DNA from: a virus
Lineage: Duplodnaviria > Caudoviricetes
Virus record (IMG/VR): IMGVR_UViG_3300020465_001196
Direction: 5' to 3' (one strand)
Length of the DNA stretch: 64,000 nt
Of this stretch, positions 10,472-64,000 are shown piece by piece (the stretch's first letter is position 1; each line of letters starts with the position of its first letter). A model generated the notes under the pieces. The model saw only the letters and a program-made list of their open reading frames with translations. It did not search any database and was not told the DNA's origin. Both the position numbers and the translations under genes were made by a program.

Positions 10472-11524
10472 TTAAATTTCTTGAAATTTATAGCTCTGTC
10501 TGGCCGCATTATCGCCACATTGTTTAAAACACGTAGGATTATAATAGTTTGATTGTTGGCCATTCCAACTTTCATGTAACAAACGACTATAATATTTGTG
10601 TCCTAGTATTTCGTTCCAACTATGATGTTTTAAACTATTCCAATCATCACCAAATTGGTCAATTAACATATGAAAGTATTCGTGTTGTTCAAAATTTTCA
10701 GTAGCAAACCAACAGCATGGCCAAACTTTATAATTCCAATCTATAAACACAGTTTTGTCATGATACATTTTACAAGAAATACTTTTACCTTCTTTTTGAG
10801 TAACTTCAAATTTATCATTATATTTTGTTACTCCTGCTGTTTCTGGATGTTGGAATTTATCAGTTGTTTTTACTTCAAACTCTTTAGTTACTATTTTGCC
10901 TTCTTCTTTGATTTTACTTTTACTAAACCAACTACGATTATTTCGTACGTTTTGTCTTAACACAAATTTAATATCTAATTGCTCTGCTAATTTTTTTGCA
11001 TTATCTATATCATCATAATTATGATCAAAAACTAGGTATTCCCATTTACAAAGTCCCTTTGCTGTTGCATAAGCCGTCATATTTTCAACAACTTTCTTCC
11101 AATTAACATTTACTCTATATAAATGATTTGTATCTTTATAACCATCTACAGAAAAAACTACTAATAGTCGTTGAGATTCATTACTCATTTTTCCCATTTC
11201 TGCAAATGTTTCTTTAGTGTTTGCTCCTGTGTTTGTGTGCATTTCAATCGAACCGCCATTATCTAAAATATATTTTGTAATAGTAACAATATTTTTATTC
11301 ATAAATGGATCATCAACTGTACCACCAAAAATAAATTCTTTATCTGCTATTAGTTCTTTTGGAAATATATTAGAAAATTCTTCCAATGACCATTCAGTTA
11401 TATTTTGTTTTAAAAATGGATGTGTATCACCATCAACTGTACGGATACACCCTGGACATCTTGCGTTACACTTATTTGTAATTTCGACATCGAACTTTGT
11501 TATGTTATTAATACTAAATGACAT
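10472..11524 (-). CDS. Radical SAM protein with C-terminal SPASM/twitch-like Cys domain (paralogue 1)
   Basis: CNARCPGC (CxxxCxxC), FGGTVDDP, FSVDG..NHLYRVNV.W, C-terminal ISC..VWPCCW..CFKQC. Confidence 0.9.
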   Translation of the reverse strand: MSFSINNITKFDVEITNKCNARCPGCIRTVDGDTHPFLKQNITEWSLEEFSNIFPKELIADKEFIFGGTVDDPFMNKNIVTITKYILDNGGSIEMHTNTGANTKETFAEMGKMSNESQRLLVVFSVDGYKDTNHLYRVNVNWKKVVENMTAYATAKGLCKWEYLVFDHNYDDIDNAKKLAEQLDIKFVLRQNVRNNRSWFSKSKIKEEGKIVTKEFEVKTTDKFQHPETAGVTKYNDKFEVTQKEGKSISCKMYHDKTVFIDWNYKVWPCCWFATENFEQHEYFHMLIDQFGDDWNSLKHHSWNEILGHKYYSRLLHESWNGQQSNYYNPTCFKQCGDNAARQSYKFQEI

Positions 11525-11528
11525 AGTA

Positions 11529-11762
11529 TCAATATTTATCGGATACTAATGATACTTCTTTTCCTGGTCCAGCTTTACTTGGTAAATCGCCAAATTCTTT
11601 AATATACAATTTAAGTACTTCTTTGTAAAAAATTGTTGAATCATGATTACATTTTTTATTAATTTCAGCCAGTCCATTATTTGTAGGTTCTAGATAACTT
11701 GCTAATACTTTTGCCGCTTCTGTTTGTAGTGTACGTAAATCTAATGTTTCTAAATCAATCAT
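11529..11762 (-). CDS. Hypothetical protein
   Basis: 77-aa ORF, closely packed in the operon. Confidence 0.55.
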   Translation of the reverse strand: MIDLETLDLRTLQTEAAKVLASYLEPTNNGLAEINKKCNHDSTIFYKEVLKLYIKEFGDLPSKAGPGKEVSLVSDKY

Positions 11763-11763
11763 A

Positions 11764-12042
11764 TTACTTACTCAGTTTATCTATTACACGATCGTTTTCT
11801 GATATTCGTGTTTGTACTATAAAACCTTTTGCACCATTATATGGATTTTGCATATAAGTTTCATTTACCCAATAGTATTTAAACAAAATTATATCACCAT
11901 TATCAAGTTTAACAGGATACCAAGCAAAACGTCTTTTCCATCTTGAATTCCATTTTGGTAAACTATTCATTGTGCGATGTCTCCAATTTCCTATATAGTT
12001 GACATCTATAATTTGTATTTTTCTTGATAGCCACTGTAACAA
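11764..12042 (-). CDS. Hypothetical protein
   Basis: 92-aa ORF with RFAWYPVKL motif seen in small phage proteins; start uncertain. Confidence 0.5.
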   Translation of the reverse strand: MLQWLSRKIQIIDVNYIGNWRHRTMNSLPKWNSRWKRRFAWYPVKLDNGDIILFKYYWVNETYMQNPYNGAKGFIVQTRISENDRVIDKLSK

Positions 12043-12062
12043 TTTTTTTCATACCTTTTTTC

Positions 12063-12139
12063 TGGCGGAGTGTAAGGGACTCGAACCCTCAACCTCCCGC
12101 GTGACAGGCGGGTGCTCTAACCAATTGAGCTAACACTCC
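12063..12139 (-). tRNA. tRNA-Asp(GTC)
   Basis: GGAGTGTTAGCTCAATTGGTTAGAGC...CCCGC-CTGTCAC-GCGGG...GGTTCGAGTCC...CTCCGCCA; encoded CCA. Confidence 0.97.
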
Positions 12140-12140
12140 A

Positions 12141-12216
12141 TGGTGGGTAGTAAAGGACTCGAACCTTTGACCCCCTCGGTGTAAACGAGGTGCTCTACCA
12201 ACTGAGCTAACCACCC
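12141..12216 (-). tRNA. tRNA-Val(TAC)
   Basis: GGGTGGTTAGCTCAGTTGGTAGAGC...CCTCG-TTTACAC-CGAGG...GGTTCGAGTCC...CCCACCA. Confidence 0.97.
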
Positions 12217-12217
12217 A

Positions 12218-12294
12218 TGGTAGGCGATATAAGACTCGAACTTATGACCTTTCCGTTATCAACGGAATGCTCTAACCAACTGAGCTAATCGCCT
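12218..12294 (-). tRNA. tRNA-Ile(GAT)
   Basis: AGGCGATTAGCTCAGTTGGTTAGAGC...TTCCG-TTGATAA-CGGAA...AGTTCGAGTCT...CGCCTACCA. Confidence 0.96.
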
Positions 12295-12664
12295 ATAGTT
12301 CAATCTCTGTTAAGCCACGTTCTCTATTTAAAAACTTATACTCTACTTTAACAGGATCAAATTGTTTAATTTCTTCAAATATAACATCTGTTGGAAGTTC
12401 GCCACAAGTGTAAACATCAAGTTGTAATAAACCTGGATCTGTTTCATCCCAACAATGTAATGCTATATGTGATGTTTCGATAATTACCAAACCAGTTAAA
12501 CCTCTGTTGCCTGGCATATCTAAATATGTTGTAATAGGTCCTTGGCATATTTGCATACCAATTTTTGACACTAATTCTGTTAACCAAGTGTGAGCCCACT
12601 TTTGATTAGTAGGTGGCTTTTTAACTTCAGCCCTTACGATTAGATGTTTGTGTTGTACTGTCAT
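12293..12664 (-). CDS. speD: S-adenosylmethionine decarboxylase proenzyme
   Basis: HKHLIV, GLTGLVIIETSHIALHCWDE (pyruvoyl-forming Ser in TSH), LDVYTCG. Confidence 0.88.
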   Translation of the reverse strand: MTVQHKHLIVRAEVKKPPTNQKWAHTWLTELVSKIGMQICQGPITTYLDMPGNRGLTGLVIIETSHIALHCWDETDPGLLQLDVYTCGELPTDVIFEEIKQFDPVKVEYKFLNRERGLTEIEL

Positions 12665-13379
12665 TTTTAAATACCGGTATTGGTTCCATTTTATGTAAAT
12701 TTGGTTTCCTTATCTTTTGATATTTATCGTAATATTCACTGTCTGGTCCATGTACCATTGCGTGTTCCATTTGCTCATATGACAGTCCATGTAGTTGATC
12801 TTTATCTGTTCTACCATCTTCCCACAAACCATCTGTAGGTTCAGCATCTATAATTTCTTGCAATACACCAAGATCTTTACCTAGTTGCCAAACTTCAGAT
12901 TTCATTAAATCTGCTATTGGAGAAATATCAACACCACCATCTCCATACTTTGTATAAAATCCTACTCCAAAATCTTCAACTTTATTTCCTGTGCCAACAA
13001 CAATACCTTTTTTAGCACTAGATATTTGATGTAGTGTAACCATTCTTAATCTTGATTTTGAATTTGCAAATGCCAGTTCACTACCATATTCATTAAATAG
13101 TTCTAACCAAAACTTATCGTAGACTTTATCTAAATCAATTATGTCGTGCTTTACATTATTAAACTTTTGTTCTAGCCATTCACCGTGTGCTATACTTAAA
13201 TCATGTTGTGATTCTATTTGTGCTATTGGCATTGAAATTGCATAAACAGGTAATTTTGTTTTTGCACATAAGGTACTTACTACTGCTGAATCTATTCCGC
13301 CTGATATTCCTACAACTAAAGACTTTCTATTATGAGCCAAGGCGTAGTCCTTGATCCACTTCGAAATCTTATCAATCAT
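12627..13379 (-). CDS. nadE: NH3-dependent NAD+ synthetase
   Basis: VVGISGGIDSAV, ANSKSRLRM, VVGTGNKVED..GFYTKYGDGGVDISPIADLMKSEV, PTDGLW; likely start at 13379. Confidence 0.95.
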   Translation of the reverse strand: MIDKISKWIKDYALAHNRKSLVVGISGGIDSAVVSTLCAKTKLPVYAISMPIAQIESQHDLSIAHGEWLEQKFNNVKHDIIDLDKVYDKFWLELFNEYGSELAFANSKSRLRMVTLHQISSAKKGIVVGTGNKVEDFGVGFYTKYGDGGVDISPIADLMKSEVWQLGKDLGVLQEIIDAEPTDGLWEDGRTDKDQLHGLSYEQMEHAMVHGPDSEYYDKYQKIRKPNLHKMEPIPVFKNDSTTQTSNRKG

Positions 13380-13383
13380 GATA

Positions 13384-13707
13384 CTAACGTCTGCTTCGTT
13401 TAGGAGGTAATCCAAGCTCTTCTAATTTTCTATCTCTTCGAGCTCTTCTTATCGCGGCTTTTTTCGCTACTCTTTTCTTTTCAGAAGGTTTAACGTAATA
13501 TTTTCTATCACGAAGTTCTTGCATTATTCCTTCTTTCATTAGCATTTTTTTAAGACGTCTAATTGCTTTTTCAACATTATTGTCTTGAACTGCTACTGCC
13601 ATTCCTGGAAGTTTTTCGTATCTTGGTTTCTTATCTTTCCATTTTGGCTTATCGCTTTGAAATTTGCCGATTTCAAATGTTTTTCTTGGTTTTGAGTTAT
13701 ACTTCAT
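13384..13707 (-). CDS. rpsU: Ribosomal protein bS21 with basic N-terminal extension
   Basis: VQDNNVEKAIRRLKKMLMKEGIMQELRDRKYYVKPSEKKR core preceded by about 35 extra residues. Confidence 0.9.
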   Translation of the reverse strand: MKYNSKPRKTFEIGKFQSDKPKWKDKKPRYEKLPGMAVAVQDNNVEKAIRRLKKMLMKEGIMQELRDRKYYVKPSEKKRVAKKAAIRRARRDRKLEELGLPPKRSRR

Positions 13708-13713
13708 ATTATT

Positions 13714-13741
13714 ATAATAACATCATTTAGATTATTGTCAA
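13714..13741 (-). promoter_or_regulatory. sigma70-type promoter TTGACA-16-TATTAT, leaderless geometry for rpsU
   Basis: -35 at 13736-13741, -10 at 13714-13719, 6 nt before ATG at 13707. Confidence 0.7.
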
Positions 13742-14292
13742 GCATTTTTTTTATCAATTGCTTTAGTAACTGTAGCAATAATTTTATTACCAAATTGTTT
13801 TGGAGGCGAATCAAACTTACCTTGATTTAATTGGCCAGAAATCATAAGTTTAAACTGATCTATAAATATTGGTCCGTTACCAATTTCTCTTCCTCTAAGT
13901 TTCATAACCATTTTAACTTTATCACCATCATCAATAAATTCTTGCACTTTTTTTAATTTAACATTTAGATCATGAACATCTGTTCCAGGACGTAATTGTA
14001 CTTCATGTAAATCAATACGATTTTCTCTTTCTTTTTTCTTTTTTTCTTTATCTGCTTTTTGTTTTTCGTAATTCCATTTACCAAAATCCATAACACGACA
14101 AACTGGTGGATCTGCCTTTTGAGCAATACAAATTAAATCTAGCCCTGCTTCTCTTGCCTTTTGCTGTGCTTCTTGATTCCTTACTATTCCTATAAAATCA
14201 CCATTTGGATCAATTAACCTAATAGTAGGAAAAGTGATTGCAGAATTTAATAAAACAGATGGTTTATTTTTTTTAAAAAATGGTTTTCTCAC
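13738..14292 (-). CDS. infC: Translation initiation factor IF-3
   Basis: IRLIDPNG..IGIV..EA..A..GLDLICI...PPVCRVMDFGKWNYE; HEVQLRPGTDVHDLNVK; GDKVK..LRGRE; GTG start. Confidence 0.93.
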   Translation of the reverse strand: MRKPFFKKNKPSVLLNSAITFPTIRLIDPNGDFIGIVRNQEAQQKAREAGLDLICIAQKADPPVCRVMDFGKWNYEKQKADKEKKKKERENRIDLHEVQLRPGTDVHDLNVKLKKVQEFIDDGDKVKMVMKLRGREIGNGPIFIDQFKLMISGQLNQGKFDSPPKQFGNKIIATVTKAIDKKNA

Positions 14293-15545
14293 TACGCCCC
14301 GTTCTTTTTATCTACTTCTTTATAAATCAACATAGGTGGTTTATTTTTAGTAATAAAAGTTTCATTTATAGCAATACGTTCTACACCTTGTTCTTTTAAC
14401 ATAGGTAATTCATATTGTAATTGCAATAGATGTTTTTCTAAAACTGATCTCAATCCCCTTGCACCAATATCTTTCTCTAATGCTAAATCACAAACAATGT
14501 CAACAGCATCTTCACTGAACTCTAATTCTATTCCATCTAGTTGGAACATTTTTTGAAATTGTTTTAGTATTGCACTTTTTGGTTTAACAAGTATATCTTT
14601 TAAATCTTGTTTTTGTAATTTATGACAAGCAACCACTACTGGCAATCTACCTACCATTTCTGGTATTAAACCAAATTTAACAATATCATCTGGTTCAACT
14701 TTTTCTAGTGATTGTTCAAACTCTTTTTCTGAAACTACAGAAGCACCAAATCCAATTGATGTATTCATGTTTAATCTTTTTCTTATAATGTCATCTAATC
14801 CAACAAACGCACCACCAACTACAAATAATATGTTTGTTGTGTCTACACTAATCATATCTTGTTGTGGGTGCTTTCTACCGCCTCCTGGTGGAACTCTAAC
14901 TACTGTTCCTTCAAGTAATTTCAATAATGCTTGTTGTACACCTTCTCCTGATACATCTCTTGTAATTGATGTATTTTCAGACTTACGTGATTTTTTATCT
15001 ATTTCATCTATATAAACTATACCTTTTTCTGCACGTTCAACATCAAAGTCACAACTTTGTAAAAGTCTTAAAATAATGTTTTCAACATCGTCACCTACAT
15101 ACCCTGATTCAGTTAATGTTGTTGCATCTGCTTGAGCAAAAGGCACATCTAAATAATCTGCTATTTTTTTAGCAAGTAATGTTTTACCACAACCACTTGG
15201 ACCAACTAGTAGTACATTTGATTTTTCTAACTCAACACCATCTACTACAGGATTTGCTAATCTTTTATAATGATTATATACTGCTACACTTAAAACTTTT
15301 TTTGCTTGTTCTTGTCCAATAACGTGTTCATCAAGATGTGCTTTTAATTCATCTGGTACTATTTTTTTTAATTCTTGTGAATCTTTTTCAATTGCTCTTA
15401 CTTCACTTTCTTCTAAAATTGAATGACACAAATCAATACATTCATTACAAATATATACTTTAGGCCCAGCAATTAATTTTTTTACTTTTTCTCTTGTTTT
15501 ACCACAAAATGAACAGGTAAATTGATCGTCTTTTTTCTTAACCAT
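14292..15545 (-). CDS. clpX: ATP-dependent Clp protease ATP-binding subunit
   Basis: CSFCGK...ICNECIDLC Zn domain, [35 protein letters not shown] loop, GARGLR; start MVKKK at 15545 (TAATG). Confidence 0.97.
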
Positions 15546-15820
15546 TATTTTTCTTTCTTTGTTGAGCAAAGAGATGAACATACCTCATCGCAATTGTTTT
15601 TATCATTCCAATGTTTTTCATTAAAATGTTCCGTAAATGCCTTATGTTTTAAAATTTTTTCTAAAGAATGTTTTTTTAAACTATTCCAATTTTCTTCTAA
15701 CTTACTCAAGTACTTACTTCTTTCTTCAGGAAATGCTTCCCTAGTTAACAAATAACAGCAAGGATAAACTTTGTTATCATAGTCAATAATAATACCTTTT
15801 GACTGACATTTAATTGCCAT
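15545..15820 (-). CDS. Stand-alone SPASM/twitch-like Cys domain (C-terminal part of split radical SAM)
   Basis: IKC...[12 protein letters not shown]...[15 protein letters not shown]...CDEVC matches the C-termini of the other three rSAM paralogues; start 15820 (ATG) or 15829 (TTG). Confidence 0.75.
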
Positions 15821-16505
15821 ATGATCCAACCCTTTCTACCAATGCTTCTTTGTTATATATATTAGCACACTTTTCTTCTAATTGCACTCTTAAAGTTAAA
15901 TCTTTAATTAAGTGATTGTAGTATGCTGATGTCCTATTGTTCATATGTGGAACAAATTCAATATTGTTTTCTTTAGATATTTTATAGGCCTCATCAAGTT
16001 GATCGTAATTAAAATCAAATACTAAAAAATTCCAAACTGTCATTTGATTACTATGTTTTGCATGAGTCATCATATTTTCCCATGCACGATCAAATTCAAC
16101 TCCAACTCTATATTTTGAGTTTGTTTCTTCATCTATTCCATCTATAGCAAATATTACTGAAACTTTATTTTTATATTTTTTTGCAATTTTTTCATACCAA
16201 TCTTTTGTACGTATTCCACCATTTGTATGTAATTGTACTCTATAATTATTTTCTACAGCATAATCAAGAAAGTCTTCAACTTGTGGATGCATAACTGGAT
16301 CACCATAATCTCCGCAAAAACTTATAACTTTATTAGGCTTGGTTTGATCTAATGCATTTTTATATTCGTCCAAAGGAAGATGTTGCAAAGGTAACCAGTC
16401 AATTTTTTCTAAAGTTTTTTTATTAGTTCTTGCACACAAAGGGCATTTAGCCTGGCAATATGTTGTTATAGAAAATTCTACGGTGTTTAATGATGTCCAA
16501 TCCAT
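15810..16505 (-). CDS. Radical SAM core domain (paralogue 2, lacks C-terminal domain)
   Basis: CQAKCPLC, FCGDYGDP, LHTNGG, FAIDG..NSKYRVGV.F. Confidence 0.85.
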   Translation of the reverse strand: MDWTSLNTVEFSITTYCQAKCPLCARTNKKTLEKIDWLPLQHLPLDEYKNALDQTKPNKVISFCGDYGDPVMHPQVEDFLDYAVENNYRVQLHTNGGIRTKDWYEKIAKKYKNKVSVIFAIDGIDEETNSKYRVGVEFDRAWENMMTHAKHSNQMTVWNFLVFDFNYDQLDEAYKISKENNIEFVPHMNNRTSAYYNHLIKDLTLRVQLEEKCANIYNKEALVERVGSYGN

Positions 16506-18608: not shown

Positions 18609-19272
18609 TTTTTTCTTTCATTTCAAAGTTACTATAAAAATTTAAAAACCAATCCATAAATTCATCTGAATTATTTAAAAATGTTAGTTTTTTTCTATTA
18701 CTAAAAGAGTTTAGTTTTTCTGGTAATTTACCATTAACTTTTAAGTTTGGAATATCTTCAAACCATACTAATTTTTCAATATTTAAATTTTTTTGCTTTT
18801 TTTCTAACTCTTTTAGTCTTGATGCTAAATCATCAAACCATTCTTTTTTATACGTAAATTTTTCTTTTGCTTTTAACATATAATCAAACTTTAATTTAGA
18901 TTCATAATTAACCCATAGTTTAGTTGTAAATCCTAAACCATAACTTAAAAATTGTCCTAATACATCTTTTCTTTTTACAAGAATAACTGGCATTTTAAAT
19001 ATGTAATCAAAAATATGTTTGCTCATATCAGGTCCTGGATGTACTTTAAATATACTTGGTTGAGATAAATCATTTTTAATTCTTAATTTTGTTTCTTGAT
19101 CAATACCTTCTTTATCATGTATATCAGGCCATCCATCATAATGTGGTGAAAAGTGTGCAAATCCAAATTTTTCAGATAGTGGCTTATGCTTTGGATATTC
19201 ATTAGCATACCATTTAGTTATAAAGTTTGTTCCACATCTAGGATTTCCATAAATGATTTTGTGTGGTATCAT
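18592..19272 (-). CDS. Sulfotransferase-like (P-loop) protein
   Basis: YGNPRCGTNF 5'-PSB-like loop; ILVKRKDVLGQFLS 3'-PB-like motif. Confidence 0.6.
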   Translation of the reverse strand: MIPHKIIYGNPRCGTNFITKWYANEYPKHKPLSEKFGFAHFSPHYDGWPDIHDKEGIDQETKLRIKNDLSQPSIFKVHPGPDMSKHIFDYIFKMPVILVKRKDVLGQFLSYGLGFTTKLWVNYESKLKFDYMLKAKEKFTYKKEWFDDLASRLKELEKKQKNLNIEKLVWFEDIPNLKVNGKLPEKLNSFSNRKKLTFLNNSDEFMDWFLNFYSNFEMKEKNENYF

Positions 19273-19715
19273 TTTTCATAAATTGCAGAATTGGCCCCAT
19301 GCTCTGCACATTCAACTTTTACAACATAACATCTATTATCAGTTTTTTCTCTAATAAGTTTGTCTGCAAAGTTAAAGGCGTGTTCCGCAAATTTTTCTGT
19401 GCCAACACCATCCATGATAACAATACTTGCAAGATCCATTTCTTCAAGTTCTTTAAACTTATCTAAATGTGGATCCTTTGCGTCTAATACAAGTTTGTGA
19501 TCAAATGAATCTTCAAGCCATTTTTTTAAAGGCTTTAATCCACCAAAATCAACTGCCCAGTTTTTATTATCTAATTCATCACAACCAAATGTAAATGTAA
19601 ATGCTAGACTATATCCGTGTAGCAAGTGACAATGTGAATGATCTGCGTTGGGCTGTCTAAAAACTGCACTCAACCCAATATTGTGTCCATAGTGTTTTGT
19701 ACTATAATGTGCCAT
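19269..19715 (-). CDS. queD: 6-carboxytetrahydropterin synthase / PTPS family
   Basis: HSHCHLLHGY, WAVDFGGLK, FDHKLV, VECAEHGANSA. Confidence 0.85.
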   Translation of the reverse strand: MAHYSTKHYGHNIGLSAVFRQPNADHSHCHLLHGYSLAFTFTFGCDELDNKNWAVDFGGLKPLKKWLEDSFDHKLVLDAKDPHLDKFKELEEMDLASIVIMDGVGTEKFAEHAFNFADKLIREKTDNRCYVVKVECAEHGANSAIYEK

Positions 19716-20985: not shown

Positions 20986-21243
20986 TTATGTCCTATTAAT
21001 ATTTATAGAGGATGACTCGCCTCTATTCTTGTTGTAATATACCTTGTAAGCACCACCAGTTGGTAGCAACTCACAGGATTTCAACTTTGGATTTGTATCA
21101 ACCCAATGTTGGAATTCTTCTTGCATTTTACCTTTGCCTGTAATAACTGTTACGTATTTCATATCTTTACTATCATCAATAAATTTTTTAAATTCTTCCC
21201 AAGCCTCGTGTATGTAATAACCATGTAAATCTAATATTGGCAT
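20986..21243 (-). CDS. Stand-alone Smr-domain endonuclease
   Basis: LDLHGYYIHEA, VTVITGKG, GGAYKV. Confidence 0.85.
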   Translation of the reverse strand: MPILDLHGYYIHEAWEEFKKFIDDSKDMKYVTVITGKGKMQEEFQHWVDTNPKLKSCELLPTGGAYKVYYNKNRGESSSININRT

Positions 21244-21246: not shown

Positions 21247-23316
21247 CTATTTGTTTGCTCCTACTATTTCTTCTTGTACGTTACTTGGTACAATTTCATA
21301 ACTATTAAATTCCATGCTGTATGACGCTCTACCGCTTGTTAAAGAACGTAAATTACCAACATAACCAAACATAGATGCTAATGGAACTAGTGCATCTAAT
21401 ACTAAACCATTACCTCTTGGTTCTTGTCCTCTAATCTGTCCTCTACGTGAACTTAAATCACCTATTACATCTCCTAAATATTCTTCAGGTGTAATAACTT
21501 CTACTTTCATCATAGGTTCTAATAATACTGGGCCTGCTTGTTTTATGCCTTCCCTAAAAGCGGCTCTTGCCGCAATTTCAAATGCAATTGCTGATGAATC
21601 AACGTCGTGATATTTTCCATCTAGCAATGTTACTTTATAATCTACTGTTGGCCATCCTGCTAATACTCCTGAATAACCTTGTGTTTTAAATCCATCTTCT
21701 ACTGATGGTATAAATTCTTTTGGCACGTTACCACCTTTAATTTCATCTGTAAATGAATAACCATCACCACGTTCACCTGGTTCAATATTACAAACAATAT
21801 GTGCAAACTGTCCTGAACCACCTGATTGTTTTTTGTGTGTGTAAGTTACTTCATATGATTTTGTTATTGTTTCTCTATAAGCAACTTGTGGTTTACCAAT
21901 ATTAGCACCAACTTTAAATTCTCTTTTCATTCTGTCAACAATAATTTCTAAATGCAACTCACCCATTCCACTTAAAATTGTTTGACCTGTTTCTTGATCT
22001 GTTTTAACTCTTAAACTTGGATCTTCTTGTACAAACTTACCAAGTGCTTCTCCCATTTTTTCTTGGTCGTCTTTTGTTTTTGGTTCTACTGCAATATCAA
22101 TAACTGGTTCTGGGAATACCATACGTTCTAATACTACTTCACTATCTTGTGCAACTAGTGTATCACCAGTTGTAACATTTTTTAATCCTACAAATGCAAT
22201 AATGTCACCAGCTTGAATACTTTTTACTTCTTCTTTAGAGTCGGCGTGCATTTCATATATTCTACCAATACGTTCTTTTTCATCTCTTGTTGAGTTATAA
22301 AGTGTATCTCCTGAACTTGCTTTACCACTATATACTCTAGCAAATGTTAATGCACCATATTTGTCATTAATAATTTTAAATGCTAATGCACTAAATGGTA
22401 GTGATGGATCTGATTTAATTGGATCTTTTTGTTCACCGTTTTCATCTATAGACCATATTGCATCAACTTCAGTTGGTGCAGGCAGATAACTTACTACAGC
22501 ATCTAGTAATGGTTGTACACCTTTGTTTTTAAATGCACTTCCACAAAGTACTGGAACAAAGTCAAATGCAACTGTACCTTTTCTAATACAAGATTTAATT
22601 TGCTCTACTGTAGGTTCAGTTCCTTCTAAATATAATTCCATAATTGCTTCATCTTGTTCAACTACAGTATCAATTAATTCTGTTCTATACTTTTCAGCAT
22701 CAGCTTTCATATCTTCTGGAATTTCTTGTTCACTAAATGAAGCACCTAGTTGCTCACCGTCCCAAACTATTGCTTTCATAGTAACTAAATCTACAATACC
22801 TTTTAAATTAGATTCTGCTCCAATTGGTAATGTTAAGATAACCGGTGATGCTCCTAATCTTTCTTTGATCATATCAACACATCTTAAAAAGTCAGCCCCT
22901 GTTCTATCAAGTTTGTTTACAAAACAAAGTCTTGGAACTCTATATTGGTCTGCTAAACGCCAGTTTGTTTCTGATTGTGGTTCTACACCTGCTACACCAT
23001 CAAATACTACAACAGCACCATCAAGTACTCTTAATGATCTGTTTACTTCAATGTTAAAGTCAATGTGACCTGGTGTATCAATAATATTAATTCTGTGATC
23101 ATCCCAAAAAACTGTAGTTGCCGCGGATGTAATTGTTATACCACGTTCTTGTTCTTGTTCCATGTAATCCGTTGTCGCGGCCCCATCATGAACTTCACCA
23201 ATTTTATGTGATTTTCCTGTGTAATATAGTATCCGTTCTGTCGTTGTTGTTTTACCAGCATCAACGTGTGCTATAATACCTATATTTCTATATCTATTTA
23301 AATCTTTTATATTCAT
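21247..23316 (-). CDS. fusA: Elongation factor G
   Basis: [74 protein letters not shown]; full five-domain length. Confidence 0.99.
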
Positions 23317-23343
23317 TTGTATTAAGTATGTAGTTTACTCTAT

Positions 23344-23754
23344 TTATATTTTACCTTCTTTAATCAGCCTCTTACGATTGCTTAAATGCATTTTTTGTAT
23401 ATCATCTTTACTCTGTCCATTGTACACTACTGCATAGCCTTCGTCAACCATTTTCTGATTAATTGTGGTTTTATCATATATAAACTCTCCCAATATACGA
23501 CCAAACTTACCTGTTTTGTCTTTATGGGTTCTTAATACTGCTGATGATCCCACTGGATAGTGGGTTTTTAAATAATTTTTTGATAATATTCCAAATTTCT
23601 TTTCTTCTTTATCACGTGTTCTAGATTCTGGAGTATCTATTCCTAGTAATCTAACACGTTCTTTGTGCATCCATGTACCAAATCCTAGATCTACATCTAC
23701 GTCAACGGTATCACCATCCACTATTCTAAGTATTTTACATCTATATTCGTACAT
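23344..23754 (-). CDS. Thermonuclease (SNase-like)
   Basis: RIVDGDTVDV, RVRLLGIDTPESR, GKFGRILG, INQKMVDEGYA. Confidence 0.92.
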   Translation of the reverse strand: MYEYRCKILRIVDGDTVDVDVDLGFGTWMHKERVRLLGIDTPESRTRDKEEKKFGILSKNYLKTHYPVGSSAVLRTHKDKTGKFGRILGEFIYDKTTINQKMVDEGYAVVYNGQSKDDIQKMHLSNRKRLIKEGKI

Positions 23755-35376: not shown

Positions 35377-35419
35377 AATGTTTCTACCTTACTAACTATA
35401 TTTATACTTTTCTTTATTT

Positions 35420-36607: not shown

Positions 36608-37765
36608 TTATTTATCATACATATTCTTATCAAATATATAATCCTTTTCGTATACATTTTCTTCTGGTTTAGTAAAAAACTGTCTTTCTACTTCTCTAAT
36701 ACTTCCACCTTTTCTACATTTTAACGCACATTTTGGAACTACATCATCAGTAGAAAAATTAGACCCATTTGAATTAAATGTCCCTGGCAACACTTTATTA
36801 TAATATTCATGCCCTAATATTTCTTCCCAAGAATAATTTAAAATACTATTCCAACCAACTCCATATTTTTTATCTAATTTTCTAATTTTTTCAAATGATA
36901 AAAATTCATATTTGTTAGCATCTTTTCCTATAATTTGAGGATTTCCTTGACCATTATAAAGATCTCCAAAATAACAACACGGCCAAAGTCTTCCATCAAA
37001 TCCTAAATATAACTTTCTGTCATGATAATATAAACATTTTATATCTACTAATTTTTGTACCGCTTCATCATTAAGTTCAAATTCTGTTTCTTTAACTTGA
37101 CTGTGTTGATATTCTTTAGATGTTTGTTTTATTTCAATTTCTTTTTTAACTACTTTTCCATTTTCTTTAACTTTAGCAACTGACTTATAACCTTCATGTG
37201 TATTTCTACTATTTCTTCTAACATTAAAATCAAAATTTAAACGTTCAGCTTCTAGTCTTGCGGCTTCAATTTCATGCTCATTGTGATCAAATGCAATGTA
37301 TTCCCAATTTCCCCATCCGCCACCATCTGCGTATGCTTTCATGTTTCTTAAAATTATATCAAAATTTGTATTAACTCTATATAAATGATTTGTTTCTCTA
37401 TGACCGTCTACACTAAAAGTAACCTTAACTCCAAGCTGTGCTAACTTTTTCCAAAACTCTGGTTTTTGTACTCCACCATTTGTGTCGATTGATACTCTTA
37501 ATGGTTTTGTTGAATTGATATATTCTATTATAGGAATTAAATTTTTATGCATTATAGCATCACCAAACACACCACAAAATTCAATACTTTTTTTATGTAA
37601 GGCTTCTGCTGGAACTCTTGCAATAAAATCTTCTACTGTTAAGTCTGCTACTGTTAATTGTGGATTTGTTTCACCATTTAATGTTCTTGAACATCCAGAA
37701 CATCTGGCATTACAATTTGATGTGATTTCAATTTCAATTCTATCGTAAGTATTGTATATTGTCAT
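36608..37765 (-). CDS. Radical SAM protein with SPASM/twitch-like domain (paralogue 3)
   Basis: CNARCSGC, FCGVFGD, DTNGG, FSVDGH..NHLYRVN, IKC..LWPCCY..CALKC. Confidence 0.9.
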   Translation of the reverse strand: MTIYNTYDRIEIEITSNCNARCSGCSRTLNGETNPQLTVADLTVEDFIARVPAEALHKKSIEFCGVFGDAIMHKNLIPIIEYINSTKPLRVSIDTNGGVQKPEFWKKLAQLGVKVTFSVDGHRETNHLYRVNTNFDIILRNMKAYADGGGWGNWEYIAFDHNEHEIEAARLEAERLNFDFNVRRNSRNTHEGYKSVAKVKENGKVVKKEIEIKQTSKEYQHSQVKETEFELNDEAVQKLVDIKCLYYHDRKLYLGFDGRLWPCCYFGDLYNGQGNPQIIGKDANKYEFLSFEKIRKLDKKYGVGWNSILNYSWEEILGHEYYNKVLPGTFNSNGSNFSTDDVVPKCALKCRKGGSIREVERQFFTKPEENVYEKDYIFDKNMYDK

Positions 37766-37776: not shown

Positions 37777-38067
37777 TTAACGTCTAAGTGCCTTGTTCAT
37801 TTTTGCAACACGTCTAGACGCTGGATTAAACCTTTTTGTTCTTAATGCTTTTCTTACAATTCTTTGACCCATTCGTGCTCTTGTTTTTTTAAGAGTAAAT
37901 CTTTTTTTAATATCCAAAGGTGCACCGCATACACTAGGATTAGAAACAATACGTCCTTTTTTTCTACCAAAAGTACATCTGTATTTTTTAACTACCTTTG
38001 TACCTTTACGTCCAAATATCAAACGTGCTTCATCTATATCTTGACTATATACTTCTGCTATTTGCAT
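37777..38067 (-). CDS. Small, very basic protein, probable internal head protein
   Basis: MQIAEVYSQDIDE|AR then Lys/Arg-rich body. Confidence 0.55.
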   Translation of the reverse strand: MQIAEVYSQDIDEARLIFGRKGTKVVKKYRCTFGRKKGRIVSNPSVCGAPLDIKKRFTLKKTRARMGQRIVRKALRTKRFNPASRRVAKMNKALRR

Positions 38068-38068
38068 A

Positions 38069-38332
38069 TTAACCTGCCCTATACACAATTGTAAACAATG
38101 TTGTCAACAATGTAATAAACAATGTACCCATTGACCAAATAATAATTCTTTCAATTTTAGTAAATTGTCTTTCTGTATTTTCTTCCATTCTATCCATACG
38201 TATATCTACTTTATCAAAACGTTTTTGAATTTCAGTATGACGTTCATGAGAAACAACAACATGAGTTTCTAAATTATTAGCTTCTGCTCCAAATTGTCCT
38301 TCAGTAATTACTTTTGGTTGATTCTTTTCCAT
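38069..38332 (-). CDS. Coiled-coil plus C-terminal TM protein (XhlA/holin-like architecture)
   Basis: Heptad region followed by IIIWSMGTLFITLLTTLFTIV. Confidence 0.5.
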   Translation of the reverse strand: MEKNQPKVITEGQFGAEANNLETHVVVSHERHTEIQKRFDKVDIRMDRMEENTERQFTKIERIIIWSMGTLFITLLTTLFTIVYRAG

Positions 38333-45114: not shown

Positions 45115-46263
45115 TTAGATTGTGAAAGTATTATTACCAGCTTTTACATCACCTAGGCCACCAACATCAAGTTTAAATCTATTTTGACCTTCACCTGACA
45201 TAGCCTTGCCCATTTCTTTGCAAATTTCATATGGTGTTACTTTGTAATTTTCAGCATATTTTAATATTTTTAATGTTCTTGGATGTATAGTAGTTATTAA
45301 TTGGAATGATTCTGATTCATCTCTTGACTTTAATATTGTTCCTGCAGAACGAAATACTCCACCAACGTTGGCCAAACTATCAGGTATATATAATATATTT
45401 TTTTTAGTTAATTCTTCTACTGTTCTATCAGGATCAACTAAATCAATTTGATTATTTGCCGCTCCACAAATAATTTTACAATTCATATCTTTTACCATAC
45501 TTAATTTTATATCATTACCTAATGCACATGGAGAATATATATCAAGTTCTTCTTTGTGTAAATTATATGTTGGTACTACTTTAAACTTCCATTTACTAAA
45601 ATCTCTAAATTGTTTTATTTTTAATGGATCTATTTCAGAAAAAACTAATTCTGCTTTTTCTTCATTTAAATAATTTGCTAATTGAAAACCTACTTTACCT
45701 AATCCTTTAATACCAATCTTCAAACCTTCTAAAGAATCTGAACCAAATTTATGTTCTGCCGCGGCTTTCATTGCATGGTAAACACCATATGCTGTACACG
45801 AACTACCAACATCTGGATCTGAATATGTTGCTGTGTAATCAGTAAAGTTTCTTAAATTTTGTAGCATAGTATAATCAAAGCCAACATCTAATCCTGCATA
45901 GTAATCACCTTTAAGATAATTAATTGCTTCGCCAAGCCAGCCTATAATACGTTTTGGTTCTACTCCTAAATTACCTGTTTCTCTATGTAGTACACCTTCA
46001 ATAACTGCTTTGCCGCCGCCAAGTTGAATTCCTGCTACAGCACATTTTTCAGTCATTGCTTTTGATAAATTTAAAACATCACGTATTGGTGTTTTTGGAT
46101 CACGATATTTCCAAAATCTTACTCCACCAAAAGCCGGACCAACTTTAGTTGAATGAACAGCAATATAGCAACTAAAATTATCATCTGAATTTGTCGCGTG
46201 AATAATTCTTTCGAAATCATTTCTTTGGATTTCTTCAATTTTTAAAACTGGTCTTGAAACCAT
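45115..46263 (-). CDS. Leu/Phe/Val dehydrogenase family
   Basis: AVHSTKVGPAFGGVRF, LSKAMTEK, GGGKAVI, GLGKVG, PCALG, ICGAANNQ, ANVGGV. Confidence 0.9.
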   Translation of the reverse strand: MVSRPVLKIEEIQRNDFERIIHATNSDDNFSCYIAVHSTKVGPAFGGVRFWKYRDPKTPIRDVLNLSKAMTEKCAVAGIQLGGGKAVIEGVLHRETGNLGVEPKRIIGWLGEAINYLKGDYYAGLDVGFDYTMLQNLRNFTDYTATYSDPDVGSSCTAYGVYHAMKAAAEHKFGSDSLEGLKIGIKGLGKVGFQLANYLNEEKAELVFSEIDPLKIKQFRDFSKWKFKVVPTYNLHKEELDIYSPCALGNDIKLSMVKDMNCKIICGAANNQIDLVDPDRTVEELTKKNILYIPDSLANVGGVFRSAGTILKSRDESESFQLITTIHPRTLKILKYAENYKVTPYEICKEMGKAMSGEGQNRFKLDVGGLGDVKAGNNTFTI

Positions 46264-52244: not shown

Positions 52245-52300
52245 AGTATACTATAGCATATTTATAAGTTTTGTCAATAGTTTTTAGCATAAATAAAAGT

Positions 52301-60071: not shown

Positions 60072-60100
60072 ACTTGTATTTATGCTAATTAAATGCGTAC

Positions 60101-60349
60101 TTAATGAATATTAAAAATATCATCTACAGGATTGAATTCAACTTGTTTATAATTTCCTGAATGTGCTAAAAATACTTCAGAAATTACAGCATCAATATTA
60201 TCATGCCAATGATTTAAAAATTTATGAGCTTTTCTAAATTCAGGTGGGATATCATCAAACTGCCACATGAATAGTTGTATGATGTTTTCATAATCTGGCA
60301 TCCAATAATATATTTTGAGCGTAGTTACTCTTTCAGGAAACAGTATCAT
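60101..60349 (-). CDS. Usg-family protein
   Basis: IYYWMPDY..IIQLFMWQFDDIPPEF...KFLNHW..NID. Confidence 0.8.
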   Translation of the reverse strand: MILFPERVTTLKIYYWMPDYENIIQLFMWQFDDIPPEFRKAHKFLNHWHDNIDAVISEVFLAHSGNYKQVEFNPVDDIFNIH

Positions 60350-60366
60350 AAAAATATTTAACTGTT

Positions 60367-60735
60367 TTATGAAATTAGTAATACAATTAGATAATATGTT
60401 AAGTAATGACCTGCTTGATCAATTGAAGATAAAAACCAATATCCTTTACTCGGTGCAACTATACCTAAACGTTTTTGTGTTGATGATTTACAAAAATCAA
60501 TATGCCAATGTGCTAGATAATCTACTATACCAAAAAAGAATGCCATTGGCCATGGAATAAAAAAACATAAAACAAAAAAAGTACCAATGCCATGTTCAGC
60601 ATAATGAAACTGTGCCGACAATGAAAGGTAATTTGATTTTCTTGTTTTAAAATGAATTAAACTTTGTAAGTAAAGATCAATAATACAATGTTTGAAAAGT
60701 AAAAAAAGAAAAATTGTGGCTCCTAGTGTAGCCAT
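60367..60735 (-). CDS. DUF3307-like membrane protein
   Basis: KHCIIDLYLQ, H..EH, HWHID, IDQAGH His/Asp motifs across TM helices. Confidence 0.75.
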   Translation of the reverse strand: MATLGATIFLFLLFKHCIIDLYLQSLIHFKTRKSNYLSLSAQFHYAEHGIGTFFVLCFFIPWPMAFFFGIVDYLAHWHIDFCKSSTQKRLGIVAPSKGYWFLSSIDQAGHYLTYYLIVLLIS

Positions 60736-60740
60736 AACAA

Positions 60741-61058
60741 TTATTCCGCTTTAAACTTTGTATACTCGCCTTGTAGCTCTGTAGCTTTCGCTTCAACTAC
60801 ATCTTCATCAATTGGATTATCACCTGATCTTGCAGGAACAAATCTTAACTTGCGTTGTGCTTTTTTAGATGGAGTTACAATATCAGTGTCAATAACTCTT
60901 GCATCTGAATGTTGCATTTCTGCTTCAGCTTCTTCATCTGTTGCTTCTTCATCTGTTGCTTCAACTGAGTTAGTTGGCATAATGATTAGCGTAGGCTTAA
61001 TACCAGCTAGTGTTAATAATCTTGATAAACCGTTATCTTCATTAATTTTGTCTGACAT
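60741..61058 (-). CDS. Hypothetical acidic protein
   Basis: LSRLLTLAGI motif; short 15-bp tandem repeat (EATDE). Confidence 0.55.
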   Translation of the reverse strand: MSDKINEDNGLSRLLTLAGIKPTLIIMPTNSVEATDEEATDEEAEAEMQHSDARVIDTDIVTPSKKAQRKLRFVPARSGDNPIDEDVVEAKATELQGEYTKFKAE

Positions 61059-61654
61059 TATTTTTTCCCTTTCGCAATGTAACTTGTAAGTTTAACTTTA
61101 GGTTTATCTGTTTCTTTGCTTTCAGTTAAACCTGTTACAACTTCAACGTTTGCACGTTCTTTACTTGCTTTTTCTAATTTAGCTAGAAAACTTTTTTTAG
61201 ACTCTTCGCTGTGTACCACATCTTTAATATCTGCTTCTTCTTTCTTATCATATGGTTGTCCCATAACTGGTGCATAATCTTCTGGTTTAGCTTTTGCTTT
61301 AGCAATTTCTCTTTCTTGTTCTTGATACAAAGGATCGCTATCTGATTGTACAACTACTGACTCATATGGTAAACCCATATAGTCTGATAAATGTCTTGAT
61401 ACTGTTTGGTATGACACAGGCATACTTGTTGTTACTTCAACAATTGTAACTTCTGTATTAGTTATGTTTGCTGGAAAATCTAGTGGATGTTCTTGCATAA
61501 TAGTTTTTTTAGGTGACGACATTTTTACAACATTGTATTTTGACAATGCTTGTTCCATTGCACTTAAATGGTCATCTTCTAGCACACCAGCTATTTTTAC
61601 TTTAAAAGTGTACTCTTTTACTGCTTCTGCAAGATAGTCTTTAAACGTTTTCAT
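61058..61654 (-). CDS. Probable head-targeted protein
   Basis: MKTFKDYLAE N-terminus resembling the T4 capsid-targeting sequence. Confidence 0.6.
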   Translation of the reverse strand: MKTFKDYLAEAVKEYTFKVKIAGVLEDDHLSAMEQALSKYNVVKMSSPKKTIMQEHPLDFPANITNTEVTIVEVTTSMPVSYQTVSRHLSDYMGLPYESVVVQSDSDPLYQEQEREIAKAKAKPEDYAPVMGQPYDKKEEADIKDVVHSEESKKSFLAKLEKASKERANVEVVTGLTESKETDKPKVKLTSYIAKGKK

Positions 61655-61673
61655 AATATAATATCCTATAGTT

Positions 61674-62294
61674 TTATTTATCTTTTTTATCGTTATCCGT
61701 ATTATCTTGAACTTTGTCTATAATTTGCTTTAAAAGTTGGTTTCTTTCACCAACAATATAGCCCTCTCCTTCAACAATATCTGCTGAATTTGAGTCATTT
61801 CCAGTCATTTGATCAATACGTTGTTTCTTTAACTGTAGCTCAACCATACGCAATTTTTTCTCTAATTTTGCATTTTTGGCTTCTACAGCATTTTTAAGCA
61901 TACTAGAAGCAACTTCAAATAATTTACCAGAATGACGTACTTCTACATTCATACCTAAATCCATTAAATCTTTATATGATTTCATTGCTTCTTGTGAATA
62001 TGTGTCCATATCTATATCTTCTGAATCTAAACCTGTTACTTGTGGTAATGCTCTATCAATTTTTTCTGCTGTTGATAGTGCTTTTATGATAGACTGTGGA
62101 TTGCTTTTGCTACTCTCTCCGCTTTCGCTTTCGCTTTGCTCACTAACTTCCTGCTGAACTTCTTCCTGTCCACTTTCAATTTTCTTTTCTTCTGCTTCGC
62201 TGATAGTTTTTTGCTCATTGGCTTTCTCCTTGGCTTTTTCAATTACCTCTTCCATTGGCGGTAAATCAAACTCTTTTTCTAATTTTTTTGTCAT
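61674..62294 (-). CDS. Probable terminase small subunit (gp16-like)
   Basis: LFEVASSMLK..AKL..coiled coil..YIVGERNQLLKQI pattern; near gp17 and gp4. Confidence 0.5.
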   Translation of the reverse strand: MTKKLEKEFDLPPMEEVIEKAKEKANEQKTISEAEEKKIESGQEEVQQEVSEQSESESGESSKSNPQSIIKALSTAEKIDRALPQVTGLDSEDIDMDTYSQEAMKSYKDLMDLGMNVEVRHSGKLFEVASSMLKNAVEAKNAKLEKKLRMVELQLKKQRIDQMTGNDSNSADIVEGEGYIVGERNQLLKQIIDKVQDNTDNDKKDK

Positions 62295-62325
62295 TTATAT
62301 ATCACCTATTAACTACGTATATTAT

Positions 62326-62763
62326 TTATCTACCTTTTGGCTTCATTTTATATATAGAATCTTCATTTAATATACGGAAACGTATTCCTTTACGTTTACT
62401 CCATTCTCCAGCCGCTTTCCATTTAGCTCTGTTTAACACAATGGTAGCTCTATCTCTTGCAGTTTTGGCCGCTTCTTGAATCGTTTGTGCTCTTGGTTTT
62501 ACTTCTATTAGTTCACTAAAACGTCTACCTTTTCTATTAAGATATGTTACTAAAAAGTCTGGAATATACACCGTATACTTTCCAGTAAATGGATTACGAT
62601 AAGGAATTTTTAATGGTTCACTAGACCATGCAATTATATTAGGATGTTCATCACAGAACTTCATAAAAGAAAATTCCCATCCTGATCTATACATTGGAGT
62701 TTTTGTTCCAACATATTTACTTGGATTTTTTAATGTATAATAACCTTTTTGAAACCTTGGCAT
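62326..62763 (-). CDS. Head-completion nuclease (gp4 / TnsA-like)
   Basis: YRSGWE, WSSE..IPY, YIPDF, IEVKP, N.AKWKAA. Confidence 0.9.
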   Translation of the reverse strand: MPRFQKGYYTLKNPSKYVGTKTPMYRSGWEFSFMKFCDEHPNIIAWSSEPLKIPYRNPFTGKYTVYIPDFLVTYLNRKGRRFSELIEVKPRAQTIQEAAKTARDRATIVLNRAKWKAAGEWSKRKGIRFRILNEDSIYKMKPKGR

Positions 62764-62844
62764 AACATTACTATTTAACCATTAACCCCTACTGTATCCT
62801 GCTTAAAATAGGATTAAAGACTATAAATTAAGCAATTTAATCAT

Positions 62845-64000
62845 TTATTTCTTTTGAGCCCAGAATTGTTTATCAACTGGAACATCTTTAGGAGTAGTTT
62901 GCTGTGCTCTCGAAAGAATATGTCCTTCTGGATCACTTCCAGCTTTTTCAATATCACTAGTATTAAAATTTGCACAACTATGAGTGCAAAAAGTTAAATT
63001 ATATCTATCTTTATTTGGCCTTAAAAGATAATCTAACTTTTTATATACTGATGACGACATAACCTCTTTAATTGTATTTGTTGCTGACACTCTAATTTTC
63101 TTTTCCCAATCTTTACCTAATTTTGATACCCAATCAGTTAAGTAATATTGTTGTTCATAATCTCTTTGTAAATAAAATTTTTTTTGAGATACAACTGATG
63201 TTCCAAATTGTTCTAAAAATTTATTCATATCACTACTCCAACAACATGGCCAAACAGTCCCATCGCTCATAACTTGTAGAGACTTAGATATTTGCCAAGG
63301 ACAAGAGTGTATTTTTCCTGTTGCTGTATTTTCTAGTTCACTAACATAATTTTTTAAACTAGATTCAGTACTCATTACTTTTTCATGAGTTTTGTCTATT
63401 TTAGTATTTTTATGTTTAGACACTTCTTTAGACTTTTCTTTATCTTTTAATGTTCCTTTTTTAGTTCGTGATGTAGATTCAGAAATAATTCTGTTTACAG
63501 TATCATTGCTACCACCATATGGTTGAGCTATTTCTAATCTATCAAATTTATAATCAAAAGCCATTTGCCTTGCTTCATCTTGTTGATCCTTATTATAATC
63601 AAAATCTAACATTCTCCAACCATGTTTATAAGGAGCAACTTCTTTTATCATTTTAAATCTTTTTTCAATTATACTCCATGATGCTCCACGTCTATATGTG
63701 TCGCACTTTTCTCTTAATCCATCTACGCCAACAACTAATTCTACTGTTGGAAGTTTTATTAATTTTAAAAATGTATCATCACTTCCACCACATAAATTTG
63801 TGTGTAAAGTTATCTTAACATTTGGTAATAGTTTTATTATTGTTGTTACTATATCATATAATTTTGGATGAGAAAAACAATCACCAATATCGCCATCAAA
63901 CTTAATACGTTTTAAATTTTTTAAATCTTTAAATATTGGTTCAATTAATTCTAATGGAATATGTTGTTGATGATCTAAAACTATTTGTTTTGGTAACAAT
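62845..64000 (-). CDS. Radical SAM protein with SPASM/twitch-like domain (paralogue 4), 5'-truncated by window end
   Basis: FDGDIGD..HP, LHTN, VGVDG..YRRGASW, HSC..VWPCCW..CTHSC; CxxxCxxC would lie beyond the window. Confidence 0.8.
   Translation of the reverse strand, partial: LLPKQIVLDHQQHIPLELIEPIFKDLKNLKRIKFDGDIGDCFSHPKLYDIVTTIIKLLPNVKITLHTNLCGGSDDTFLKLIKLPTVELVVGVDGLREKCDTYRRGASWSIIEKRFKMIKEVAPYKHGWRMLDFDYNKDQQDEARQMAFDYKFDRLEIAQPYGGSNDTVNRIISESTSRTKKGTLKDKEKSKEVSKHKNTKIDKTHEKVMSTESSLKNYVSELENTATGKIHSCPWQISKSLQVMSDGTVWPCCWSSDMNKFLEQFGTSVVSQKKFYLQRDYEQQYYLTDWVSKLGKDWEKKIRVSATNTIKEVMSSSVYKKLDYLLRPNKDRYNLTFCTHSCANFNTSDIEKAGSDPEGHILSRAQQTTPKDVPVDKQFWAQKK

Follow-up and report, generated by a model that had tools for sequence, protein, structure and literature searches.

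The 64,000-nt stretch of DNA analysed here (IMG/VR record IMGVR_UViG_3300020465_001196; hereafter the window) contains four loci, numbered 1 to 4 by position (Table 1), that a preliminary description had grouped as one highly diverged family of radical S-adenosylmethionine (SAM)/SPASM-like enzymes. Pfam and NCBIfam searches bore this out: all four loci, each on the minus strand, are genuine radical SAM genes with a SPASM/twitch-type auxiliary domain, and their products are 24–36% identical to one another in pairwise comparisons. Pfam Radical_SAM E-values were 9e-7, 5e-10, 9e-11 and, for the truncated locus 4, 2e-3; the PF04055 scores of loci 1 to 3 were 29.6–42.6 bits (gathering score 29.5), and locus 4, with its N-terminus missing, scored 18.9 bits. 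The core motif CxxxCxxC reads CNARCPGC at locus 1, CQAKCPLC at locus 2 and CNARCSGC at locus 3. At locus 4 it lies beyond the end of the window, and the syntenic counterpart in G001 (a complete IMG/VR phage of 328,149 bp, collinear with the window at roughly 70–99% nucleotide identity, which served as our comparator) carries CNLRCPGC. The motifs previously listed as shared, VDG..N..YR, [WY]PCC[WY] and a C-terminal CxxxC, were found in all four copies, but the spacing given with them needed correction, as the first Cys lies 15–18 residues before the CC pair and not 9–12. In an alignment of 24 homologs the three cluster Cys, the VDG..N..YR block, the P-C-C and the C-terminal C-x3-C were invariant, and one more Cys upstream of P-C-C was kept in at least 90% of sequences. 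Relative to G001, the ratio of nonsynonymous to synonymous substitution rates (dN/dS) across the radical SAM genes and their partner genes was 0.15–0.65, in keeping with functional genes. Further copies of the subfamily exist outside the window, and G001 has seven matches to the family profile.

Table 1. Radical SAM loci and associated features, with positions in the window
Feature	Position	Strand	Details
Locus 1, 350-aa radical SAM protein with fused twitch-like domain, clade Q	10472..11524	-	Pfam Radical_SAM; CNARCPGC plus C251, C270, C271, C332, C336
Locus 2, 231-aa radical SAM core subunit (L2N)	15810..16505	-	Pfam Radical_SAM E 5e-10; dN/dS 0.29
Locus 2, 91-aa free Cys-rich SPASM/twitch-type subunit (L2C)	15545..15820	-	own ATG; SPASM 26.6 bits; dN/dS 0.15
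Locus 3, 385-aa radical SAM/twitch-type protein, clade Q, divergence island	36608..37765	-	Pfam; AlphaFold2 model; dN/dS 0.44
Locus 4, radical SAM/SPASM-type protein, clade R, N-terminus cut by window end	62845..64000	-	Pfam SPASM 24.3 bits
77-aa helical protein of a conserved ~74-aa family	11529..11762	-	stop 4 nt ahead of locus 1 start; dN/dS 0.21
Two genes of the main multi-radical-SAM operon, running off the window start	118..1840	-	families c2 (1109-1840) and c1 (118-1182)
Ferredoxin-like ORF, 120 aa	25659..26021	-	two CxxCxxCxxxCP-like motifs, 7.5% Cys; 2x[4Fe-4S]-type
Exact TATAAATA sites 15–45 nt upstream of starts	10395-10402, 21000-21007, 23341-23348, 35399-35406, 52259-52266	-	Hsp20, small ORF, EF-G, methyltransferase-like gene (start 35376), ORF starting 52244

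The C-terminal domain has five conserved Cys columns in the 24 fused homologs, and the same five recur in 65 free subunits, in the pattern C-x15-18-[WYF]PCC ... C-x3-C. A SPASM domain is defined by a Cys set sufficient for two auxiliary clusters, AuxI and AuxII (PMC9012708); counted from sequence, the five conserved Cys would fully ligate just one extra cluster. Against the Pfam SPASM model (PF13186, gathering score 21.5) locus 4 and the free subunit of locus 2 scored above threshold (Table 1), locus 1 scored below it, and locus 3 gave no match. Twitch domains are truncated SPASM domains with one auxiliary cluster and a beta-hairpin after the first Cys, and in an AlphaFold2 (AF2) model of the locus 3 protein (predicted local distance difference test score, pLDDT, 80) a hairpin of strands 251–254 and 259–261 lies between C244 and C263. 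Because five Cys can fully ligate one auxiliary cluster only, the domain fits a twitch-like rather than a full SPASM assignment, with the number of clusters taken from the Cys count. Since CxxxCxxC begins at residue 17–19 in loci 1 to 3, leaving no room for it, we conclude that these proteins have no N-terminal recognition element (RRE) of the kind used on peptides that are made by ribosomes and modified after translation (RiPPs). The best-scoring curated NCBIfam families for all four proteins were NF033640 (N_Twi_rSAM) and TIGR04317, the latter the tungsten-cofactor oxidoreductase radical SAM maturase family, at 32–58 bits against cutoffs of 170 and 380 (32–43 bits for NF033640 by itself), indicating that the phage proteins are not members of either. 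Matches to the QueE, TYW1 and MoaA families were likewise far under their cutoffs; identity as QueE was rejected, with only locus 3 matching TIGR03963 (25.6 bits against a cutoff of 260), and so was identity as MoaA.

The AF2 model matched many solved radical SAM structures (Z 11–17), and the best scores, Z 15–17, were tied among SuiB, BlsE, SkfB, MoaA, DesII, anSME, ChlB and BtrN. Like the locus 3 protein, BlsE (PDB 7vob), BtrN (4m7t), DesII (8hzv), SpeY (7x0b) and MoaA (1tv7) pair a CxxxCxxC core with a short Fe-S domain at the C-terminus in which there is a beta-hairpin, lack an RRE and are of similar size, with Z scores of 17.0 for BlsE (272 aligned residues, root-mean-square deviation 4.0), 16.4 for DesII, 16.3–16.6 for MoaA and 15.3 for BtrN. 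The phage enzymes differ from these five in sequence (12–19% identity), in their five-Cys pattern C...[WYF]PCC...CxxxC, and in that one subfamily encodes the twitch-type domain as a separate gene. The SPASM maturases SuiB (5v1q), SkfB (6efn), anSME (4k37), ChlB (9gmc) and CteB (5why) gave equal fold scores (Z 15–17); the resemblance to them extends to the SPASM scores of locus 4 and the free locus 2 subunit, but the phage proteins depart from them in having five conserved Cys, too few for two clusters, no RRE, and no precursor of the leader/core type. As modelled, then, the fold class of locus 3 is clear and its substrate class is not, the matches being equally good across classes.

Locus 2, which the preliminary description listed by its whole span (15545-16505), comprises two overlapping open reading frames (ORFs) in different frames, a core ORF that ends in TAA and a Cys-rich ORF whose ATG lies 8 nt before that end (overlap sequence ATGGCAATTAA). 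Such a layout, together with the raised dN/dS of loci 3 and 4 (0.44 and 0.65), might indicate decaying duplicates, with locus 2 a frameshifted pseudogene or assembly error and loci 3 and 4 relaxed remnants. The comparative evidence makes this very improbable. G001 carries the same overlap, ATGnCnATTAA, and both halves of locus 2 are under purifying selection (dN/dS 0.15–0.29 at dS 0.6–0.9). Thirty homologs of the core ORF (38–100% identity) are all 214–262 aa long in a search whose range of 127–405 aa would show fusions, the sole longer protein being a distant one of 336 aa and 24% identity. In 63 of 68 evaluable loci (of 80 IMG/VR loci) the core ORF had behind it a [WYF]PCC ORF that begins at a start codon of its own, and no locus had a fused form, with overlaps of -1 to -61 nt or a short gap and with differing frame offsets; by clustering, the core and subunit pair was found in 70 of 73 unique loci, at times three in tandem. 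That 63 loci keep both ORFs and both start codons while overlaps and frames vary by lineage excludes assembly error, recent pseudogene formation and a programmed frameshift at a fixed site, and the decay reading is largely refuted for locus 2; at loci 3 and 4 it is opposed by the retention of all catalytic Cys in both proteins and in the alleles of both. We thus regard locus 2 as encoding a predicted two-subunit enzyme whose layout, judged from these comparisons, is old and real. Full-text literature searching found no paper describing such a split core and Cys-rich subunit form. At the IMG/VR loci L198, L202 and L216 the split pair occurs three times in tandem and is followed by one further core ORF. 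A strong sigma-70-like site (16635-16608) lies about 100 nt upstream of locus 2; it is a consensus match only, and scans of the window for sigma-70-like sites and terminators were at chance level overall.

Loci 3 and 4 stand out as islands of divergence. Most genes flanking them encode proteins 83–97% identical to their G001 counterparts, whereas the identity is 57% for locus 3 and 37% for locus 4, and dN/dS is 0.08–0.32 in the flanks. Relative to contig L002, nucleotide identity at locus 3 drops to 0.49–0.77 exactly across the gene and is 0.82–0.97 on both sides; among the locus 3 alleles, the segments that hold the catalytic motifs are 70–80% identical, and the inter-domain linker and tail are 13–30% identical. 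For locus 4, nucleotide identity to G001 is 0.40–0.59 inside the gene and 0.81–0.92 in the adjacent TnsA-like gene, whose protein is 88% identical to that of G001. We saw no such dip at loci 1 and 2. A radical SAM gene occupies the locus 4 site in 4 of 76 anchored relatives, these four being the closest ones and carrying three alleles that are 37–55% identical; in the next relatives a flanking gene of 146 aa directly abuts the TnsA-like anchor. Because only the four closest of the anchored relatives carry the gene there, locus 4 is by sequence comparison a lineage-specific insertion that afterwards diverged fast or was exchanged. The TnsA-like protein that adjoins the site (62326-62763, minus strand) has an endonuclease fold and was found in at least 450 IMG/VR stretches, and thus appears to be encoded by a core gene. 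Directly upstream of locus 3 is an ORF for a very basic protein of 103 aa (37777-38088, minus strand) that is 97% identical to its G001 counterpart (dN/dS 0.08); neither Pfam nor PHROG gave a family for it.

The locus 1 protein is 78% identical to its G001 ortholog (dN/dS 0.17). The preliminary description had noted that no precursor gene adjoined the radical SAM loci, and indeed no classical precursor peptide is present, but a conserved ORF of 77 aa lies 4 nt upstream of locus 1. An alignment of this small-protein family (A2; 31 sequences) had a mean column identity of 65%, and in about 28 of 35 phage loci the small gene directly adjoins a radical SAM gene or overlaps it. The AF2 model of the 77-aa protein (pLDDT 89) is a helical bundle, all-helical and without beta-sheet, and so does not supply a PqqD-like recognition partner. 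We found no family for it in Pfam, PHROG or Atlas and no match among cultured phages; Foldseek returned nothing at E ≤ 0.001, and the VIA-wide best matches, death-domain-like bundles at Z 4.8, were too weak to use. Loci 2, 3 and 4 have no comparable small partner from this family. Searched with the family profile, 1.84 billion representatives yielded 63 clusters, mostly of free-standing proteins of 70–98 aa. In a few cases, some of which could be gene-calling artefacts, the domain was fused: behind a c2-family protein (P0166, which had been considered as a c1 fusion and was rejected as such), behind a free twitch subunit (P0195), and ahead of a ~290-aa domain without a known family (P0201-P0203). 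Neither the c1 protein nor fusion protein P0203 found a match in sequence searches of the PDB.

Peptide or protein maturases of the anSME or sactipeptide/ranthipeptide type, whose target would be the 77-aa protein or some other phage protein such as one of the virion or fibre, would fit the roughly 28 loci in which a radical SAM gene shows translational coupling to the conserved small gene. SPASM/twitch enzymes are often such maturases, SuiB, SkfB, anSME and ChlB tie for best fold match, and in other phages the main radical SAM operon follows a gene annotated, in cultured-phage homologs, as baseplate wedge/tail pin or virion structural protein. We consider maturation possible but rather unlikely: the RRE is absent, and the 77-aa protein is a compact helical bundle conserved over its full length, with no variable or Cys/Ser-rich tail. 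Its occurrence in fusion with enzymes is unusual for a substrate, the window ORFs include no Cys-repeat protein or other obvious substrate, the promoter argument for late expression fails (see below), and the carbamoyltransferase, UDP-glucose dehydrogenase-like, short-chain dehydrogenase/reductase (SDR) and glycosyltransferase family 2 (GT2) genes that co-occur with the family indicate sugars. Because the domain is also found fused to other proteins, our data suggest that the 77-aa protein is a docking or adaptor domain rather than a RiPP precursor peptide.

The wider context of the small gene was examined in a tree of 259 family members, in which its usual downstream partner forms a group of 50 sequences with support 0.99 (clade P). 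The G001 gene at 289,668, part of a multi-gene operon just past the window start, is in this group, and loci 1 and 3 fall in its sister clade Q, whose members are normally next in the operon. The recurrent order in this operon is c18 c15 c14 c11 c11 c28 c2 c2 c1, small protein, rP, rQ, more radical SAM genes and c4; other phages thus have the c2 and c1 families, found here at the start of the window, ahead of the small protein, rP and rQ. Since clade Q genes come after the small gene and rP in the main operon, and c2 and c1 lie at the window start, the most fitting account of locus 1 and its 77-aa neighbour is that they are a fragment of the main multi-radical-SAM operon that has moved. The small-protein gene and the tRNA cluster have between them an ORF of 92 aa (11764-12042, minus strand) with a weak match to phrog_7749; this stretch has no G001 counterpart (nucleotide identity ~0.10), which points to an indel between close relatives.

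Loci 1 and 3 had also been credited with late-type promoter motifs 8 nt before their ATG codons (at 11533 and 37774), and the family with late expression. These motifs read GATAAATA and GTTAAATA, respectively, and not TATAAATA, with 1–2 mismatches, and they overlap the stop codons of the upstream genes (the 77-aa ORF and the basic 103-aa ORF). We rejected both as T4 late promoters, given that the near-matches are inexact, lie within upstream coding sequence and are 8 nt from the ATG. The window has 8 exact copies of TATAAATA, against about 15 expected by chance, and 7 of the 8 are on the minus strand; five of these seven are 15–45 nt upstream of other starts (Table 1), another lies about 100 nt ahead of a start, and the last is inside an ORF. 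The five may plausibly be true late promoters, the motif count in the window being not above chance. No radical SAM gene has any of the 8 exact sites in front of it, and because of this late expression of the four copies is not supported; the correction removes a misleading cue as to when these enzymes act.

The window is AT-rich (30–34% GC), with nearly all genes on the minus strand, and a Pfam scan of about 55 of its ORFs identified it as the replication, translation and chaperone portion of the genome of a T4-like jumbo phage, uncultured and marine; a megablast search with 10 kb of the window against cultured phages gave no match. The scan found Hsp70, Hsp20, ClpX and ClpP; initiation factor 3 (IF3), ribosomal protein S21 and elongation factor G (EF-G); ribonucleotide reductase (RNR), ThyX, a primase-like protein, DnaB-like and UvsW-like helicases and a RecA/UvsX-like recombinase; and the large terminase. 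There are also four tRNA genes, with Asp, Val and Ile among their types. A virion-modification module, which had been proposed to act together with glycosyltransferase-like, sulfotransferase-like, methyltransferase-like and 2-oxoglutarate/Fe(II) genes, is not supported here: the neighbours of the four loci are of the kinds just listed, no sulfotransferase-like or 2-oxoglutarate/Fe(II)-dependent partner was found by Pfam among these ORFs, and the glycosyltransferase-like and methyltransferase-like partners came down to sub-threshold matches, to Anp1 (E 1e-3) and to a methyltransferase-like family (E 8e-4). Of the targets suggested with that module, virion proteins or glycans, a glycan stays plausible from the company that the family keeps in other genomes.

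Outside the window the family profile gave 376 hits in 160 loci, usually several per locus. The families that accompany it in other genomes include carbamoyltransferase, SDR, UDP-glucose dehydrogenase-like, Asp/Arg-hydroxylase-like and Asn-synthase-like proteins, and GT2 in Bdellovibrionota. Cellular homologs come mostly from Bdellovibrionota and Myxococcota metagenome-assembled genomes with similar gene sets, and matches in cultured phages (Pelagibacter phage Mosig and Campylobacter phages CP220 and F379) are weak, 26–31% identical and confined to the N-terminal core. Because the family keeps sugar-type gene company elsewhere, has a twitch-type domain and lacks an RRE, we tentatively favour radical tailoring of a sugar or glycan as the function of the four enzymes, a reading to which we give a little less than even credence. 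Several observations weigh against it. The fold matches are tied between sugar/nucleoside enzymes and peptide/protein maturases, and nothing in the window picks out a substrate; no recognisable sugar enzyme adjoins any of the four loci in the window, the neighbours being replication, translation and chaperone genes; and the arrangement of a small-protein gene with many radical SAM genes after it is reminiscent of a RiPP cluster as well. In other systems Asp/Arg-hydroxylase-like and Asn-synthase-like proteins act on proteins or peptides. The operon argument is drawn from other phages and might not hold for loci 2, 3 and 4, which belong to other clades or positions, and the number of bound clusters is a count of Cys.

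The position of the copies, among RNR, ThyX, primase, tRNA-Asp, -Val and -Ile, IF3, S21 and EF-G genes, raises a further alternative, namely modification of nucleic acids or nucleotides, whether DNA hypermodification (possibly with a sugar) or modification of tRNA or rRNA, serving in anti-restriction or in tuning translation. The sharp islands at loci 3 and 4 would suit a trait in an arms race, and the only cultured-phage relatives, the weak N-terminal matches in Pelagibacter phage Mosig and CP220-type Campylobacter phages, have been counted in its favour. This alternative is nevertheless improbable in our estimation, as no DNA- or RNA-binding domain was detected in the enzymes, the scores against the QueE, TYW1 and MoaA families are far under cutoff, the ORFs scanned include no DpdA-type or base-exchange gene, and the family usually sits in an operon that adjoins structural genes.

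The four loci are best explained as lineage-amplified members of one radical SAM clade of phages and predatory bacteria, each enzyme having an N-terminal [4Fe-4S]/SAM core with a predicted partial TIM-barrel fold, a C-terminal twitch-type domain able on its Cys count to ligate one auxiliary cluster, and no RRE. Under the tentatively favoured sugar or glycan reading, the core would cleave SAM to a 5'-deoxyadenosyl radical that abstracts H from a C-H bond of the substrate, and the auxiliary cluster might serve as an electron sink or as a substrate anchor. BtrN, SpeY, BlsE and DesII perform such radical chemistry on sugars and nucleosides. The substrate would be a sugar, nucleotide sugar or glycan intermediate, and the product would be the same as that of the large operon ending at the window start. 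At locus 2 the core would act with a separately translated Cys-rich subunit made by translational coupling, and loci 3 and 4 would be insertion-type copies of fast turnover that keep the catalytic motifs while linkers and tails vary. It is possible that the ferredoxin-like ORF (Table 1), judged by its motifs, supplies electrons to the radical SAM enzymes.

Few gene families of large marine phages are as expanded as the radical SAM enzymes, and to our knowledge no function has been assigned to any of these. Nishimura et al. 2017 (PMC5332604) described marine viral genomes of the T4-like type in which radical SAM genes number up to 12, one of them having 12 along with genes for Fe-S assembly. 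Those genomes and that of CP220 are T4-like and rich in radical SAM genes, as here, and the papers list the genes without function, architecture or a split form. Two features offer a concrete experimental handle on such proteins: a radical SAM enzyme naturally divided into two subunits, and a conserved partner domain of 74 aa that occurs fused to different proteins of the pathway. Individual copies behave as hypervariable cassettes within otherwise conserved regions of the core genome, a signature of phage genes under host pressure. One could go further and picture loci 3 and 4 as allelic "chemistry cassettes", in which single radical SAM genes are exchanged or diversified at speed among closely related phages, so that each lineage makes by radical chemistry its own, slightly different decoration of a surface glycan, virion protein or DNA that decides host range or escape from defence, with the 74-aa domain docking twitch subunits, cores and transferases into one machine; we regard this as a speculative and unlikely extension. 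Should the product prove to be a decoration, glycan or DNA, that differs between alleles, it would matter for host range in ocean phages and for new radical chemistry.

Some other genes of the window deserve mention. The EF-G homolog (21247-23316, minus strand) is full-length, with all five EF-G Pfam domains present, and with IF3 (13738-14292, minus strand) and ribosomal protein S21 (13384-13707, minus strand) it makes up a large translation set for a phage. Metabolic genes, all on the minus strand, encode a 6-pyruvoyltetrahydropterin synthase (PTPS)/QueD-like protein (19269-19715), a full-length aldehyde dehydrogenase (2651-4141) and a Glu/Leu/Phe/Val-dehydrogenase-like protein (45115-46263). 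Unusual as phage cargo are a homolog of the SbmA/BacA-family inner-membrane transporters (4716-5687, minus strand; E 1.6e-132) and a MotA/ExbB-like proton-channel protein (7314-7886, minus strand).

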